DNA from: an uncultured Actinomycetota bacterium
GTDB lineage: Bacteria; Actinomycetota; Humimicrobiia; Humimicrobiales; Humimicrobiaceae
Length of the DNA stretch: 64,000 bases
Direction of reading: 5' to 3'
NCBI GenBank assembly: GCA_964601205.1
Contig: CAZRML010000010.1
Location: 8,649 to 72,648 of the forward strand
In this document: one piece after another, positions 10,209-20,154 of the stretch
Numbering within the stretch: the stretch's first letter is position 1
How the letters are laid out: each line of letters opens with the position of its first letter
Notes under the pieces: model-generated
Seen by the model: only the letters and a program-made list of their open reading frames with translations
The model's database searches: none
What the model was told of the DNA's origin: nothing
Translations under genes and position numbers: made by a program

Positions 10209-11762
10209 ATGAAATTAAATACTAATATGTATAATATTCTATATAATATACCGAATTACACTGACAGATACACTGAGATTATGAATAATTTAAACAGACA
10301 TTTTGAAAAAACTTATAGTACCGGTGAGATAAACGGGCCTGACGCTGCGGGAATAAGCAGAACTCCCCCTGTTACGGGCAACCGGGGTTATATAAAGCTA
10401 ACCGCAAAAATAACCGGAAATATAATAAGGGATATAAAATTTAAAGCAGAAGGTTGTAACCACACAAAAGCGGCGGCGGGTTGTCTTGCCGCTCTGGTTA
10501 AAAATAAAGATATACTTGATTCCACTCTTTTAACCGGAAAAGATATAGAACACCGTCTGGGAAAATTCCCTCCGGGGAAAAAGCATGTTCTTGATACTGC
10601 AATAAACGCCCTTAATAATCTTATTACAGATTATTTTTCGGGGCCCCTTTCTTCAAATATTTATAAAGAAAATAAGAATAAAGTAGTAGTAGCTATGAGT
10701 GGAGGTATTGACAGTTCAATGGCCGCAAAAATTTTAAAGGATAGGGGTCATCAACTAATAGGCGTAACCTTAAAATTACTTCCCGATGATTTTTACCGGA
10801 AAAAGCACAGAAACAATTTAATCCGGGAAAAAGATTTTAAAACAGCAAGGATGGTGGCATTAAAACTAAATATTCCCCATATAGTCCTGGATCTAACCCT
10901 GCCATTTAAGGATAAAATAATTGAGCCTTTCTACGCTAATTATATAAAAGGTCTCACCCCCAATCCCTGCGTGGAATGCAATAAGTATATTAAATTTGGG
11001 ATTCTTCTTGAAAAAGTTAAAAATTTTGGCGCGGCTTTTCTTGCTACCGGACACTATTGCAGGATTGAAAAATCAAAGGATTCAGGATTATACGAACTAA
11101 AAAAAGGCGCCGATGAAAATAAAGACCAGAGCTACATGCTTTGGAGACTGGGCCAGAAGCAGATATCAAAGATAAAAACCCCTCTGGGAGAATCTTCAAA
11201 AATTAACATAAAAAAGGAAACCAGAAAAATTTTCCCTTTCCTGGAAGAGAAAAATGAAAGCCAGGATATCTGTTTTATACCCGAAAATAATTATCATTCA
11301 TTCATAAAGTCCAGATTAATAAACATTAAAGAGGGGCTGATACTGGACACCGGGGGTAACATTATTGGTACCCATAAAGGATATTTTTTTTACACTATCG
11401 GACAGAGAAAAGGACTGGGCATAAGCCGCACTGAGCCTCTTTATGTAAAAGAGATATTACCGGATAAAAATATAATAGTAGCAGGCGATGAAAAAGATAT
11501 AATGCAAAAAACATTTAGTGTGACAAAAAGTAATTTTATTGCCGGAAACCCTCCCGGAAATATTTTCAGGGCAACGGTAAAAATAAGATATAAAAGCAAT
11601 GAATATCCAGCAGAAATAAAAATTACCGGCAAAAATACAGCTGCCATAATTTTCGATGAGTCGCAAAAAGCAATCACCCCGGGCCAATCTGCTGTTTTCT
11701 ATCATGGTGATATACTTTTAGGAGGAGGGGTAATTACAAAAATAGAATCTGATAGAGCCTGA
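10209..11762 (+). CDS. mnmA: tRNA-specific 2-thiouridylase MnmA fused to an N-terminal degenerate IscU/NifU-like domain
   Basis: The C-terminal ~360 aa carry the PP-loop VVAMSGGIDSS and the catalytic-Cys region NPCVECNKYIKFG of MnmA. The N-terminal ~150 aa align to the IscU pattern (IRDIKFKAEGCNHTKAAAGCLA; PPGKKHVLDTAINAL), but two of the three conserved cysteines are absent. Confidence 0.7.
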   Translation: MKLNTNMYNILYNIPNYTDRYTEIMNNLNRHFEKTYSTGEINGPDAAGISRTPPVTGNRGYIKLTAKITGNIIRDIKFKAEGCNHTKAAAGCLAALVKNKDILDSTLLTGKDIEHRLGKFPPGKKHVLDTAINALNNLITDYFSGPLSSNIYKENKNKVVVAMSGGIDSSMAAKILKDRGHQLIGVTLKLLPDDFYRKKHRNNLIREKDFKTARMVALKLNIPHIVLDLTLPFKDKIIEPFYANYIKGLTPNPCVECNKYIKFGILLEKVKNFGAAFLATGHYCRIEKSKDSGLYELKKGADENKDQSYMLWRLGQKQISKIKTPLGESSKINIKKETRKIFPFLEEKNESQDICFIPENNYHSFIKSRLINIKEGLILDTGGNIIGTHKGYFFYTIGQRKGLGISRTEPLYVKEILPDKNIIVAGDEKDIMQKTFSVTKSNFIAGNPPGNIFRATVKIRYKSNEYPAEIKITGKNTAAIIFDESQKAITPGQSAVFYHGDILLGGGVITKIESDRA

Positions 11763-11825
11763 ATAACTTTTGGAATAATAAACAATTCAACAACAAAAAA
11801 ATAAATAAAAAATTTTAAAATCCTA

Positions 11826-11854
11826 TTGACATAAATATTGGTATCTGCTATATT
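11826..11854 (+). promoter_or_regulatory. sigma-70-like promoter (TTGACA-17 nt-TATATT)
   Basis: TTGACA lies at 11826-11831, followed by a 17-nt spacer and TATATT at 11849-11854. This is a consensus -35 and a near-consensus -10 in an intergenic region. Confidence 0.45.
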
Positions 11855-11860
11855 AGGAGT

Positions 11861-12036
11861 TGCCTTGGAAAAGGAGGTAACTTTCAGAATTAACTGAAAT
11901 TTACAAACGAAAGAATGTAAAAAGTAAGTTTTAAATTCTAAAAGAACCTGAGAAAAGTTCTGAGGTTAAGGTCCCAAGATGTTAAGTAGCCTAAGGCGTG
12001 AGCTAAGGTAAAAGATAACTTGGGATCCTTTTTTTA
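11861..12036 (+). ncRNA. candidate small RNA or regulatory leader (~175 nt) of unknown family, from the promoter at 11826 to a hairpin plus T7 run near 12030
   Basis: A strong promoter lies immediately upstream. There is no ORF with a start codon. Internal stems include AGAAC/GTTCT and CCCAAG...CTTGGG. The motifs TAAGG/CTAAGG recur four times within 60 nt. The region ends GGGATCCTTTTTTT. ilvE starts 280 nt further on. Confidence 0.3.
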
Positions 12037-12315
12037 TATTAAGTTTTTCTTCATATCCATTTCAAAATTCCCGGAAGATAAATACTTTATTTTTATTTAC
12101 TTCCATAATTGCCGCCGCTTATCATAATTTTAATCACCATCCCCTGCAAACGGCTCCGGTATTAAACTGTAGATTATAAATATCAGATAAACCCGGCATC
12201 TTTTTTTATTCTTTTAAATAAAAATAATAAAAATTTCAATCTTAACCGTAAATTAATTGCAAAATAAAAGTAAAATAAGTAAAATAAAAAATTAAAATTT
12301 AAAAAAGAGGAAATC

Positions 12316-13236
12316 ATGGCTAATCCTGAATATGCTTTTTTTGAGGGAAAAATAATTCCAATCGGAGAAGCTAAAGTAGATATTAGAACCAATGCTCTCC
12401 AGTACGGAACGGCAGTTTTTGAAGGAATAAGAAGTTACTGGAACGAAAAAACAAAAACAAGTTATGTTTTTAGAATTAAGGACCATTATAAAAGGTTCCT
12501 TTCCAGCTGCAGGATAATGATGCTTGATATAAAATATTCTGTTGAAGAGCTCTCCAGCATAACTATAGAATTATTAAAGAAGGAAAAATACACAGAAGAT
12601 TGTTATATAAGACCATTTGCTTATAACAGCGGCCTGGACATAGGGCCTAAATTAGTTGGCAACAAACAGGACATTTTAATATATTCTATACCACTCGGTG
12701 AATACCTGGATATATCAAGACCCATAAATGTTTGTATATCTTCCTGGGAGCGCGTCTCAGATAACGCAATACCTCCCCGGGCAAAAATAGCCGGCTCTTA
12801 CGTAAATGCCGCATTCCAAAAAACAGAAGCTCTCCTTAACGGCTACGATGAAGCCCTTGTTCTGACAAATGATGGGAAACATGTAAGCGAAGGAAGTGCC
12901 ATGAATGTCTTCATGCTAAAAAATGGTAATTTAATCACCCCTCCCGTAACCGATGATATACTTGAAGGCATCACCCGTGATACAGTAATAAAACTTGCTG
13001 AAGAAGTCGAGAAAATTAAAGTCGTTGAACGGTCCATAGACCGGACAGAACTCTATATTGCCGATGAATTATTTTTCTGCGGAACAGGAGCCCAGATTTC
13101 ATCCATAGGAAGTGTTGATAAGCGGCCTGTTGGAGACGGGAAAATTGGCCCACTTACTAAAAGACTGCAGGAACTTTATTTTAATGTGGCAAAAAATGAA
13201 GTTGAAGAATATTCTAACTGGTGCACCAGAGTATAA
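12316..13236 (+). CDS. ilvE: branched-chain amino acid aminotransferase
   Basis: It is a fold-type IV PLP enzyme, 306 aa. Motifs include EGIRSY and FFCGTGAQISSIGSVD, typical of IlvE. Confidence 0.8.
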   Translation: MANPEYAFFEGKIIPIGEAKVDIRTNALQYGTAVFEGIRSYWNEKTKTSYVFRIKDHYKRFLSSCRIMMLDIKYSVEELSSITIELLKKEKYTEDCYIRPFAYNSGLDIGPKLVGNKQDILIYSIPLGEYLDISRPINVCISSWERVSDNAIPPRAKIAGSYVNAAFQKTEALLNGYDEALVLTNDGKHVSEGSAMNVFMLKNGNLITPPVTDDILEGITRDTVIKLAEEVEKIKVVERSIDRTELYIADELFFCGTGAQISSIGSVDKRPVGDGKIGPLTKRLQELYFNVAKNEVEEYSNWCTRV

Positions 13237-13347
13237 AAACTAATCTTTTTTAGGCCTATTTCTGAAATATATAACAACCTATAATTAACCTGCGTAGTAT
13301 ATATTTTTAAAAGATATCACCTGACACAAGAAATTGTTTTTGATACC

Positions 13348-16300
13348 CTAACCGTTCTTTTTGTTAATAATATTTGAACAAAATTCAGCATAATTACAGA
13401 ACTTCTTACAGCTGTTCTTGAAGTTAGCTTTAAAATTTTTATCTCTGATGTTTTTTATCTCGGCAAGAATATCCTTTTTCAGCTGTTTTATTTCATCACT
13501 ATTAACCGTAATTGATTTTTCTACCCCATCCCCCAGATAAAAAATGCATCCTTTTATATCACTTACCGGTTTACTGTAAATTTCTGATAACGCTGCTATA
13601 TAAGCTTTCATCTGGAACCCGGCAGAATTTTCGAGATTATTTTGATTTTTATTATTTTTATTTTTAGAATAAGAAGATAATTTATAATCAATAATCCTTA
13701 GCTTATTATCCGTCTTTATATCAACCCTATCAAACCTGCCAACAATATAGCAATCCTTGATCTTCCAGTAAAAAAGCTGCTCCAGCATTATTGAACTTAC
13801 TTCAGAAAAATTCCATAAATCACTGTTCAGAAAATTCTCCAGGTATTTTTCTATCTTTTTATCATCAAAATGGCCCATAACCTTTTCTTTTAAAATTTTA
13901 TTATGGAACCCGGTCAGAGTTATATTTTTTAAATACCCGTGGACTTCTTCTCCTCTGGCAAGTTGTTCGCTTTCTTTTTCAGGTATAAAATAAATATGTT
14001 TCCATCTGTATAGCAGCGGGCATTTTTTATGATCAATAATCCAGGTTAAAGGGAAAAATCTTCTGGTATTAATATTATCTTCTGGATAGCTTCCATAAGA
14101 TAATTCAAAATTAATTTTATCTACAATTTCCTGAACCCTGCTATTTTCTACCTGTGTATCCCCGGATTTTATAACCCTGTTTGCCAGAACCTTCTGATAA
14201 AGTTCCCACCGGTTCTCATCCTGTACCCTGATATTTTTACTATCTTTCTTATCAGAATTGATAAAGCTCAGGACATCTTTAAAGTTTTCATGATCTTTGT
14301 ATGATTTTTCATCGTAATTTGTTCTTATAAAATCCAGGCCTTCTTTATTTATAACCCTCAGGCTGTTACTGTTTACAATATCCTCAAAGAAAGGCATGAT
14401 TTCTTTTGGCTTAACGCTTTCACTGGCAGAAGCTAAATTATCTTCATATTCACTTGATGACAGAATGAGAATCTTCTTTGCTCTGCTGCATCCCACATAA
14501 AAAATTCTTCTTTCTTCTTCTATTTTTATATCTTTTAAAGACTCAGAAAAGCTCCTGGCACTATTAAAATCTTTTTTCCTCTTATATATGCTGTTATCTT
14601 TTCTCAGCTCTGAGGGGACCATAAATCCTCCGGACGAAATTCTTGCCTTATAATCATTTTTCCACAATCCCGGCAGGAAAACTACTTCAAATTCAAGCCC
14701 TTTAGCCGCGTGGATGCTCATTATTTTTACAGAATTCTCGCCTGAAAATTCCACGCTTTCCGGGTCATCATAATCTGTTTTCGCAACATCTTTAAGAAAA
14801 GTTATAAAGGCCCTAAGATTATTTTCTATATAACTTTTCTGAAAGTCAGAGGCCACTCTTATAATATTCTCAATATTTTTAATTTTTTTCCGGAATACTG
14901 GACCGGGACTTGATTTTAATTCATTTATTATGCCCGAATCTTCTATAATCAAGCTGATTAATTCCCTAAGCTCCAATTCTCCTGATTTACTTATATAAAG
15001 CTTCAGACTGGAAAGAAAACTGCCCAATCTTTCTTTTGTCTCTCTACTTAAATAAGTATTCTTTTTATAATCTGCTATCCCTTCAATTATATTTATACTT
15101 TCACTGGGATCCGTGTAATTTCTTTTAATAAAAAAAATATCCCTGTCGCAAATTTTATATTTTTCTGATTTAAGCAGATACACTATTGATATCTCATCAT
15201 TTATATTCTCTATAACCCTGAGCCATGAAATAATAAATAAAATCTCCGGCTCAAAGAAAAAATTCTTTCCCCCTATCAGCTCAAATTTAATACCGTTAGC
15301 TTCCAGTTCCCCGGTAATCTTTTCAAACTTTTTCCTTCTGGCAAGAATAGCCATTTGCTTTAATTTAATCCCTCCTGCCGACAGATACTTTATAATCCCT
15401 GCAATCTCCGCTGCCTCTTCCTCATGAGTTTTCTTATAATAAAATATAACCTCTGAGGGTTTACTTTTATCTTCAGACTTTAGCTCTTTTTTAAATCTTT
15501 TACTATTTGAAGAAATAACCCTGTTTATTGAGTTTATGATGTTATTCCCGGATCTGAAATTAGTGGTAAGAAAAAAATCATGCACATTACTGTTCTTAAA
15601 TTCTTCAAGCCTGTGAAAATTTAATATGTTCTCCACGCTGGCTCCCCGAAAAGAATAAATACCCTGGTCATCATCTCCCACAACCACTATTCTGTTGTTT
15701 CCGGGTTTATAAAGCATGGATAGAAGGTATGCCTGTGCTATATTGGTATCCTGGAATTCATCAACAAATATATATTCATATCTCTGCTGGTACCAGGCTC
15801 TCATTGACTTTCTCTCCCGGAGTAAAAGATAAGGCATAAATACCTGGTCGGGGTAATCTATACAATTACTTTCAATCTTCCTTCTTTCATATCGCTGATA
15901 AATAGTGAAAAGCTCTCGCTGGATATCTATTGATTTTTCTTCTTCATTTTTTAGAGCCTTACTTTTGTATCCGGAAAGAATTTTTTCATAATTATTTAGA
16001 TAATATTCAAATTCAGCCACAGATATAAGGTTGTTCTTTAAATTTTCTATGTAATTAAGTAACTTCTGAACGAATTCTCCAGCCTTTTTCCCGGGTTTTA
16101 AATACTTTAGATTGGACTCATTAAATATTTCATATAATATCTGCCAGGACTGGCTGTTATTTATAATTTTAAAATCTTTCCCTAGGCCAAACTCAAAACT
16201 GTGCTCGCTTATTATTTCATTTCCAAAAGAATTAAAGGTGAATACATTAATTCCTTCTATGTCTATGTCTTTCTTAACATTTTCCTTAATTCTTACTCTC

Positions 16301-20080: not shown

Positions 20081-20154
20081 TGGAGCGGGCTACGGGAATT
20101 GAACCCGCCTCCTGAGCTTGGGAAGCTCATGTACTACCGCTGTACTAAGCCCGC
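20081..20154 (-). tRNA. tRNA-Gly (anticodon CCC), CCA encoded
   Basis: The reverse complement folds as a cloverleaf. The acceptor stem is GCGGGCT/AGCCCGC. The D arm is GTAC-AGCGGTA-GTAC. The anticodon stem is TGAGC/GCTCA with loop TTCCCAA. The T arm is GCGGG-TTCAATT-CCCGT. Discriminator U is followed by CCA. Confidence 0.85.

Follow-up and report, generated by a model that had tools for sequence, protein, structure and literature searches.

A probable independent gene for a conserved, structured RNA upstream of ilvE in an uncultured lineage of Actinomycetota

Introduction

The raiA motif and OLE RNA are orphan structured noncoding RNAs (ncRNAs) of bacteria. Here we describe an RNA of this general kind, which is predicted to be encoded on the forward strand between the mnmA and ilvE genes of an uncultured Actinomycetota bacterium, within a stretch of 64,000 nucleotides (nt) of contig CAZRML010000010.1 (hereafter the window; positions given without a locus handle are counted from its first letter). 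Like the raiA motif and OLE RNA, this RNA has a stand-alone gene, a multi-helix architecture, loops that are as conserved as its stems, signatures of tertiary structure and a lineage-restricted distribution. In contrast to these two RNAs, it belongs to a different phylum-level lineage, has no match to either of them in Rfam 15, and some of its copies lie in recombinase-associated hypervariable DNA; moreover, it is smaller than OLE RNA.

A further point of comparison is the GAAA tetraloop/11-nt receptor module, which is known from group I and group II introns, RNase P and several riboswitches. The RNA described here likewise combines a C-GAAA-G cap with a CCUAAG...UAUGG loop in a second helix of the same molecule. 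Unlike the families discussed above, however, this module is a motif and not a family; in addition, its receptor is canonical in some members only, and the docking of the two elements is a prediction.

Below we present the evidence that positions 11826-12036 of the window likely constitute an independent gene for a conserved, structured, stand-alone RNA of ~176 nt, and we weigh this reading against regulatory, housekeeping and recombination-related alternatives.

Results

A promoter-terminator unit in the mnmA-ilvE spacer

A spacer of 553 nt separates the gene of a NifU_N-MnmA fusion protein (10209-11762, + strand) from that of a class IV aminotransferase (12316-13236, + strand), the latter having the Pfam domain Aminotran_4 and being a branched-chain amino acid transaminase according to NCBIfam (NF005146, 367.6 bits for a cut-off of 279), in agreement with the ilvE assignment made in an earlier note on this DNA. 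The TTGACA-17-TATATT promoter that the same note had placed in the spacer is borne out by our promoter scan: with its -10 hexamer at 11849-11854 it scores 11/12, carries in addition a TG dinucleotide one base before the -10 hexamer, and is the top-scoring sigma-70-like site within 11000-13500. Judging from the promoter spacing, transcription is predicted to start at ~11860-11862.

The unit ends with CTTGGGATCCTTTTTTT at 12019-12036, that is, 279 nt 5' of the ilvE start codon (ATG, 12316), and the terminator-bounded end proposed near 12036 is indeed present in the form of a G+C-rich stem of 8-9 bp followed by a U-run, both of which are kept and covary in relatives. This terminator was not listed by a simple terminator scan because its stem encloses a structured insert of 40 nt and not a loop of 3-8 nt. 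No open reading frame (ORF) of at least 20 aa with a start codon is present on the + strand within 11763-12019, as had been claimed earlier, and short ORFs conserved across 58 homologues were found on neither strand. The longest recurrent small ORF, comprising 12 codons, was rejected: it uses a TTG start, begins upstream of the predicted transcription start and is not conserved.

The multi-stem character attributed to the segment is reflected in its folding energy of -53.4 kcal/mol (11855-12037), which is far below that of shuffled sequences (z = -4.76; z = -4.71 for 11861-12036). The Rfam comparison suggested in the earlier note was also carried out. Searched at gathering threshold with Rfam 15, the whole 64-kb window yielded only a tRNA at 20084-20154 and left the RNA unmatched; at E <= 10, region 11700-12400 gave only chance matches (Trp_leader_2, Plastid-rps18 and mir-7359; E > 2), and eight other member loci gave none at E <= 1. 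Across ~183 kb of related loci, the gathering-level search returned tRNAs and RNase P RNA only. The T-box model matched neither the window at gathering threshold nor 11700-12400 at E <= 10, in line with the previous judgement that T-box features are missing.

The RNA is conserved in a lineage of uncultured Actinomycetota

A genome scan with the ilvE protein recovered 10 related loci from metagenome-assembled genomes (MAGs), in eight of which nhmmer located the promoter-to-terminator segment 5' of ilvE; the remaining spacer between the RNA and ilvE could be aligned in only half of the relatives. Two further relatives (ilvE 77% identical) also carry the RNA between mnmA and ilvE, and the most distant loci, L015 and L016 (ilvE 75% identical), have another arrangement with no RNA upstream of ilvE. 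All recovered mnmA/ilvE-linked relatives other than these two keep the promoter, the body and the terminator, which settles the matter of conservation in relatives that the earlier note had raised. An alignment of nine synteny-derived sequences including the window (A1) is invariant at the promoter hexamers, GGAGGTAA, AACTGAAATTT, CGAAAGAATGTA-AAAGTAAGT, GAGAAAAGTT, AGTAGCCTAA and GGTAAAAG-TAACTTGGG.

Using a covariance model built here from the homologues (R1), we found the window RNA with 202.6 bits (E = 2e-44) as the sole copy in 64 kb. A 20-nt pattern derived from two of the invariant RNA blocks was searched against a metagenome collection and matched at least 120 stretches. R1 confirmed at least 56 + 38 of the matches on metagenome loci, at up to 216 bits, plus four further synteny-derived loci (95-219 bits in all); in total, at least about 100 RNA copies were found in Candidatus Humimicrobiia-like Actinomycetota, on contigs from metagenomes and MAGs. 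Among the matches listed, mnmA or ilvE is present at only 23 of ~85 R1-confirmed metagenome loci (group 1); the other loci (group 2) have flanking ORFs from many clusters that are unrelated to each other, and the next downstream ORF is often found on the opposite strand. Over both groups, TGCTATATT at the extended -10 element is near-invariant, and the -35 position holds TTGACA, TTGATG or TTTACA in most of 58 loci. Taken as a whole, the RNA unit is far beyond chance.

JGI and Logan metagenome contigs, from samples labelled ML8 and MLSed among others, encode an ilvE protein identical to that of the window, and on these contigs the spacer is 100% identical as well; the exact locus is contained, for example, in JGI samples 3300077522, 3300077317 and 3300001335. 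Homologues of ilvE at 70-97% identity bear, where labels are given, those of Actinomycetota, Candidatus Humimicrobiaceae or Candidatus Hydromicrobium MAGs. Since a housekeeping protein encoded beside one group-2 RNA copy has an 80% identical homologue on a 137-kb contig with a group-1 locus, groups 1 and 2 are of one lineage. As far as sampled, the family thus appears restricted to an uncultured Actinomycetota lineage of Candidatus Humimicrobiia-like MAGs, for which our literature search found no paper on ncRNAs. A second RNA copy was found neither in the window nor at the rnpB/PGI locus of group-1 organisms. A phage origin was considered and rejected: the sole pattern match in IMG/VR has an off-length spacer (28 nt vs 26) and is not R1-positive, and a search for phage copies with a 3'-domain pattern gave no match.

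A covariation-supported fold with a rod and a 3' hairpin

For nine sequences, RNAalifold predicted that the 5' end pairs with UUCUAAGG in a long-range helix, and it also predicted a 3' hairpin containing covarying pairs. Helices were then tested on 58 sequences (53 distinct), and the covariation check in homologous intergenic regions that had been advised earlier did reveal covarying helices. In the revised structure (Table 1), 91.5% of cells are paired over the 58 sequences, compared to 27-57% in slid controls, and double changes affect 22 pairs and 65 cells, compared to 10.2 pairs and 23.3 cells in shuffles, with none of 500 shuffles reaching these values. Pairs of P2 such as 39:96 (CG 32 / UA 10 / UG 2 / AU 1) and 41:94 (GC 42 / AU 4) covary, and the terminator helix (helix 7) is 96.5% paired with double changes in five of eight pairs. 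For the group-2 member L098, the revised fold is identical to the unconstrained minimum-free-energy structure.

Domain 1 forms an irregular rod in which an internal loop AAGG/GAGAAAAG separates P1 from P1b and an AA/AA loop separates P3 from the C-GAAA-G apex. We take the GAAA/AAGUA internal loop to resemble the loop-E/sarcin-ricin motif (GAA/AGUA), as a resemblance only. Because the query pattern fixed the GAAA loop, invariance of the tetraloop is uninformative in the pattern-derived set. Domain 2 is a long hairpin with a GC-GUGA-GC apex (GNRA loop GTGA at 11998-12001), whose apex pair covaries between CG and UA; its conserved internal loops are AUGUUAAGUA/AAAAGAUAA, followed by GCCUAAG...CUAAGGU. 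Invariant columns amount to 49 of 70 among unpaired and 59 of 96 among paired positions. Unpaired columns being as invariant as paired ones, this pattern is more readily explained by sequence-specific tertiary or protein contacts than by an antisense RNA of the seed type.

Several local hairpins were rejected. The 5' hairpin GCCUU/AAGGAGG of the window's minimum-free-energy fold, which would sequester the Shine-Dalgarno-like sequence, is not conserved, with only 60% pairing over the family members, and probably extends on its outer side into untranscribed DNA. The local P2 hairpin UUUCAG/CUGAAA of the first RNAalifold model lacks compensatory changes and is disrupted by variation in its 5' strand; this UUUCAG strand was re-paired with the downstream UUCUGAAA, with which it covaries. 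Alternative helices among the segments X1, X2 and X3 are confined to domain 1 and none touches the terminator; the local alternative is without significant covariation, and the local X2:X3 hairpin was accordingly dismissed as a switch partner of P1.

Table 1. Positions of the RNA gene, its structural elements and the ilvE promoter in the window
Feature	Position	Strand	Basis
-35 hexamer TTGACA of RNA promoter	11826..11831	+	promoter scan; invariant in 9 synteny-derived loci
Extended -10 TGcTATATT of RNA promoter	11846..11854	+	sequence, promoter scan; TG at 11846-11847
Primary transcript, ~176 nt, predicted stand-alone structured small RNA	11861..12036	+	R1 match, z-score, no Rfam match, no conserved ORF
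Domain 1, irregular rod (~105 nt)	11862..11966	+	revised structure, covariation on 58 sequences
P1	11862-11870/11958-11966	+	supported; double changes in six pairs
Shine-Dalgarno-like GGAGGTAA, partly paired in P1b	11873..11880	+	invariant, columns A53-A61 of A1; no start codon after
P1b AGGT/ACCT	11875-11878/11946-11949	+	revised structure
P2 CTTT/AAAG	11881-11884/11941-11944	+	covariation-supported
P2 AGAATT/AATTCT	11886-11891/11934-11939	+	covariation-supported
P2a AACT/AGTT	11892-11895/11927-11930	+	revised structure
GAAA strand of internal loop, facing AAGTA	11896..11899	+	invariant in A1, near-invariant in A3/A4
P3 TTTACA/TGTAAA	11900-11905/11916-11921	+	revised structure
Rod apex, GAAA tetraloop closed by C-G	11908..11913	+	invariant in 11 synteny-derived sequences
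AAGTA strand of same internal loop	11922..11926	+	within invariant block AAAGTAAGT
Invariant 8-nt internal-loop strand GAGAAAAG, P1b to P1	11950..11957	+	A132-T140 in A1; conserved in A3/A4
Domain 2, long hairpin = intrinsic terminator stem	11970..12027	+	helix pairing and covariation
Terminator stem GGTCCCAAG/CTTGGGATC	11970-11978/12019-12027	+	helix 7
Receptor-like loop, 5' strand GCCTAAG, with third TAAGG of the earlier note	11989..11995	+	AGTAGCCTAA invariant; relatives CCUAAG/CCUAAA
Receptor-like loop, 3' strand CTAAGGT, fourth TAAGG of the earlier note	12003..12009	+	many relatives CUAUGG; group 2 CCAGGG
Terminator U-tract TTTTTTTA (T7)	12029..12036	+	sequence; T-run after stem in nearly all homologues
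ilvE promoter TTGCAA-17-TAAAAT	12257..12285	+	promoter scan; 31-59 nt before ATG

TAAGG motifs and a receptor-like loop

Four copies of TAAGG within 60 nt had previously been reported for the segment. Three of these are exact (11967, 11992 and 12004) and one reads TAAGT (11983), all lying within 42 nt at the only spot in the 64-kb window with three TAAGG inside 60 nt. Among the nine sequences of A1, the set is complete only in the window, L008 and L009; elsewhere the corresponding positions read GTAGTAAC, TGAGTA, CTAAAG or CTATGG/CCAGGG. The repeats are therefore not conserved in relatives, and two of them represent the two strands of one internal loop, so that the CsrA-like titration attributed to the AAGG repeats finds no support.

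The internal loop in question is the receptor-like loop of domain 2. It takes the form CCUAAG...UAUGG, which we take to be the classical 11-nt receptor for GAAA tetraloops, in L013, L060 and L079, CCUAAA...UAUGG in L010-L012 and L017, CCUAAG...UAAGG in the window and CCUAAA...CAGGG in group 2. On the basis of these motifs, the GAAA loop at the tip of the rod probably docks into the receptor-like loop of domain 2.

ilvE is a separate transcription unit

The ilvE gene has its own promoter (Table 1), which together with the Shine-Dalgarno sequence is conserved in 13 loci (120 nt before the start aligned), including the RNA-less L015 and L016. Because this promoter lies 3' of the RNA terminator, the RNA and ilvE are separate transcription units. 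The distance between terminator and ilvE ranges from ~140 to 380 nt in relatives, and neither the 9-sequence nor the 58-sequence structure test revealed a conserved helix competing with the terminator stem. Searching for a T-box UGGN bulge, we found a single candidate (AGGU in the window, UGGU or GGGU elsewhere), which sits inside the internal loop of the terminator hairpin itself. The variable spacer, the non-ilvE contexts and the lack of a conserved terminator-competing helix remove the case for attenuation, and the RNA does not control ilvE in cis.

Some features of the surrounding genes were also recorded. The opposite strand of the RNA-ilvE spacer contains an ORF of 21 codons (12134-12199, - strand), where JGI called a gene of 26 aa on two contigs; it is probably spurious because the spacer is not conserved in relatives. 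MnmA, the tRNA 2-thiouridine synthase, is encoded as a 517-aa fusion with an N-terminal NifU/IscU-like domain of ~145 aa, which is kept in the close relatives of the window; the MnmA of L140 has 350 aa and is without the added domain. In L140 (1-6100) and L142 (1-5500), genes for ilvD, ilvB/ilvN, a class V aminotransferase, a serA-like protein and leuA lie on the opposite strand and start just past the gene of a trypsin-like protease. Based on this gene order, the mnmA-RNA-ilvE locus borders a branched-chain amino acid biosynthesis cluster.

Group-2 copies lie in variable, recombinase-associated DNA

Pfam analysis of 132 ORFs neighbouring group-2 copies identified Phage_integrase as the commonest domain, followed by AbiEii, TIR, SIR2, HD, restriction and methylase domains. 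The group-2 recombinase (188-215 aa) is an Xer/IntI-like tyrosine recombinase consisting of the catalytic domain only and was found at L092:955-1518, L059, L036, L024, L062, L131, L136, L114, L112 and L119; the 188-aa protein scores 105.6 bits vs a cut-off of 265 for integron integrases and 163 bits vs a cut-off of 220 for XerA. No homologue of it is present in the window. Short fragments of the recombinase 3' end are repeated several times within the same group-2 loci.

Within the first ~150 nt after the RNA, many group-2 terminators are followed by a shared module of 45 nt, CTTAAAGAATTATTTTATATGTCTTCTAYCACTTTTTGCTGTATAAC, which ends in GTATAAC (L020, L024, L032, L040, L045, L059, L060, L081, L083, L093 and L095), and homology between loci stops at ...ATAAC. 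Beyond this module lie differing bulged palindromes that end in GTTAGCT, GTTAGAA or GTTAGAG (L020, L040, L081) or in GTTGGGC (L059), others being less clear. With RYYYAAC ... imperfect palindrome ... GTTRRRY as the attC criterion, these palindromes appear to resemble integron attC sites; a crude ungapped attC scan returned no site. Neither tRNA genes that could serve as integration sites beside group-2 copies nor partial 3' repeats of the RNA flanking the cargo were found. Group-2 loci share with stable-RNA island borders and integron arrays their toxin-antitoxin, TIR, SIR2, AbiE and restriction-modification cargo, a tyrosine recombinase and attC-like palindromes that abut the RNA. They differ from an integron in that the recombinase has a catalytic domain only and stays below the XerA and IntI cut-offs, and the window has no such features. 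In these surroundings, the conserved RNA gene may serve as a preferred boundary of mobile DNA, as is common for stable-RNA genes, or, less likely, the RNA may participate in that system.

Further observations concern individual copies. On some contigs the RNA is present twice, as 5' partial copies or in interrupted form. At L131:5380-7060 (- strand), as well as at L116, L119 and L040, a coding insert of ~1.2 kb lies between two direct partial RNA copies, which begin at the -10 element and extend to approximately RNA position 62; of these, the upstream one retains a complete promoter, so that expression of the inserted genes would depend on the promoter of the RNA. At L112:7476-7984 (- strand), a ~345-nt insertion interrupts the RNA copy and replaces positions 66-73. 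The sole cargo between RNA and recombinase at L092 (340-845) consists of two genes, the products of which resemble, by eye, an RHH antitoxin and a RelE/ParE-type toxin. In L024, L030, L049, L057, L085 and L095, the RNA starts at the stop codon of a secreted-looking protein of ~430 aa with WVDTSYTVSQGYW-type repeats; these six copies have neither a promoter nor the 5' P1 strand, and could represent either decayed RNA genes or transcribed 3' untranslated regions. A second repeated module of ~130 nt, GGGGTATATAAATGTATCCC...GCTTCTAGGGGCATTCTAGCGCTTCAT...CCAGTTAAAAATTGCTGAAAGAAAG, which has no Rfam match, occurs on both sides of RNA copies (upstream, for example, in L081, L083, L098, L037, L022 and L025; downstream in L098, L049, L096, L075 and L051).

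The RNase P RNA gene (rnpB; class A, ~300 bits) was located at L025:9011-9390, L144:7156-7535 and L146:7416-7790 (all on the - strand). A 3'-truncated copy of the RNA lies ~200 nt from the rnpB 3' end in L025, and L144 is without a copy. As L025 and L144 are 93-98% identical from the rnpB 3' end and unrelated beyond, this end borders variable DNA.

Discussion

The arrangement of the window locus, with a promoter, a structured RNA, a terminator and a biosynthesis gene on the same strand, is that of T-box and other amino-acid terminator leaders, and an attenuator-type leader for the aminotransferase was one of two alternatives offered in the earlier note. An attenuator leader or riboswitch of this kind would sense branched-chain amino acid status and gate ilvE through the terminator; the constant position of the RNA in the window clade, where it always separates mnmA from ilvE and has the orientation of the latter, the ilvD, ilvBN and leuA genes beside the locus in relatives and the X1/X2/X3 repeats, which permit alternative helices, would all be compatible with such a function. 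About three quarters of the family, however, lie away from ilvE, and many copies face a convergent gene. In addition, the ilvE promoter after the terminator is conserved and kept even in RNA-less relatives, the RNA-ilvE spacer is variable and unalignable, conserved terminator-competing pairing or an antiterminator is lacking, the local alternative hairpin shows no significant covariation, and neither a T-box sequence nor a T-box or other riboswitch model matches, which together make this explanation highly improbable. The other alternative, a stand-alone small RNA (sRNA), is supported by its own conserved promoter and terminator and by its varied neighbours. Protein titration, as further proposed in the note, by a sponge of the CsrB/RsmZ type whose repeated (C)TAAGG/Shine-Dalgarno-like motifs would bind a CsrA-like or ribosome-associated factor in several copies, deserves next to no credence. 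Its appeal lies in the purine-rich AAGG repeats of the window sequence, where three TAAGG and one TAAGT form a unique cluster in 42 nt, and in the invariant GGAGG near the RNA 5' end; the full repeat set, however, is confined to the window, L008 and L009, the motifs occupy helix and internal-loop strands and not hairpin loops, and a GGA core in a loop context is missing, the single GGAGG being the only one.

A classical base-pairing sRNA, in which a conserved single-stranded seed would act against mRNAs and the remainder would serve as scaffold and terminator, agrees with the stand-alone promoter-terminator unit and with conserved unpaired A/U-rich segments such as AAAGUAAGU and GAGAAAAG. We nevertheless consider it unlikely, as conservation spans nearly all 176 nt and not one seed, and as seed-type sRNAs do not usually have a long rigid rod or signatures of tertiary motifs. 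A highly divergent housekeeping RNA missed by the Rfam models, namely 6S RNA (ssrS) or, less likely, signal recognition particle (SRP, 4.5S) RNA, would account for the size of ~180 nt, the strong housekeeping-type promoter of a stand-alone gene, the GNRA-capped rod with conserved internal loops, and the single copy and fixed synteny in the window clade; the variable DNA that abuts RNA copies likewise abuts the RNase P RNA gene of the same organisms. Against this identity, which we judge quite improbable, stand the absence of 6S and SRP model matches even at E <= 10, unpaired 5' and 3' ends in place of a closing stem, the lack of a large central bubble, a 3' third that forms an independent hairpin, apex-proximal loops (AA/AA and GAAA/AAGUA) unlike those of SRP RNA, the absence of SRP domain IV motifs from the sequence, contigs with two or truncated copies, and the missing RNA at the syntenic place in L015 and L016. 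Finally, the RNA could be part of a recombination or gene-capture system, as a promoter or attachment platform, boundary element or cofactor for the 190-aa recombinase, with the window copy as a solitary relative. At 15 or more group-2 loci, the gene of the small Xer-like recombinase, either whole or as 3'-end fragments, is situated 0.8-10 kb downstream of the RNA and in its orientation, the attC-like palindromes begin at a fixed point 45 nt past the terminator, RNA copies are duplicated, truncated or interrupted, and L025 has a copy that is absent from the 93-98% identical L144. The window, by contrast, has no recombinase homologue, no second copy and no such modules; its clade retains fixed synteny across genomes whose MnmA proteins are only 57-69% identical, and a conserved RNA gene may merely be a favoured insertion site, like those of tRNAs, tmRNA and rnpB. 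A direct role of the RNA in such a system therefore seems doubtful to us, and so does the broader notion that the family marks, as RNA or as DNA, a gene-capture system of Candidatus Humimicrobiia that is integron-like but undescribed. Under that notion, the RNA would be an attachment platform, boundary or cofactor, the strong promoter and the RNA gene would border arrays of defence and toxin-antitoxin cassettes delimited by attC-like palindromes, which the ~190-aa catalytic-domain-only tyrosine recombinase would service, and the window copy would represent the solitary chromosomal version.

Overall, these results favour the reading of 11826-12036 as an independent gene for a stand-alone structured RNA, suggesting a model in which transcription of the RNA would start at ~11861, driven by an extended -10 promoter of its own that is close to the consensus, and end with release at its own intrinsic terminator, the 3' hairpin of which would double as a functional domain. 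The transcript would fold into a GAAA-capped rod of ~105 nt with invariant loops and a 3' hairpin with a tetraloop-receptor-type loop, both being clamped together via a loop-receptor tertiary contact. The resulting compact RNA would act in trans, probably bound to protein, and would not be a simple antisense regulator. While the analysis shows the transcription signals, the conservation, the non-coding nature, the secondary structure and the independence from ilvE, the start site, the docking, the action in trans and the binding of protein are inferred, and these separate steps of the model are less certain than the statement of a stand-alone RNA gene as a whole.

Several points weigh against this reading or limit its reach. 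The start site, 3' end and abundance of the RNA are all predicted. Most members were collected with a pattern that fixes 20 nt of the RNA and hence form a biased sample; the sequences are closely related, and their alignment was fitted to the model. Pairing is only modestly above that of shuffles (91.5 vs 89.7%), and most helices are largely invariant. For the window sequence, the thermodynamic optimum replaces P1 by two local hairpins and lies ~4-7 kcal/mol below the covariation-supported fold, so that the rod is perhaps not the only conformation. The receptor is canonical only in a subset of members, the window having UAAGG and group 2 CAGGG. A trans-acting structural or protein-binding role appears most likely, with a partner protein or target that is hypothetical. 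Because sister contigs carry the RNA in variable, recombinase-associated DNA, its role could also be tied to the recombinase system and not to general physiology.

The RNA is a new family of a familiar general kind, and it adds a well-defined, strongly conserved structured RNA to an Actinomycetota class that is known from metagenomes only. Its clear signals, covariation-backed structure and probable tetraloop-receptor clamp make it tractable for structural and ribonucleoprotein studies as well as for inclusion in Rfam. For annotation, the locus exemplifies a trap, since a promoter and terminator unit before a biosynthetic gene need not be an attenuator. Moreover, the sister copies in recombinase-associated hypervariable DNA hint that gene capture and a stable-RNA gene may be linked, which would make the family more interesting still if the functional link holds true.

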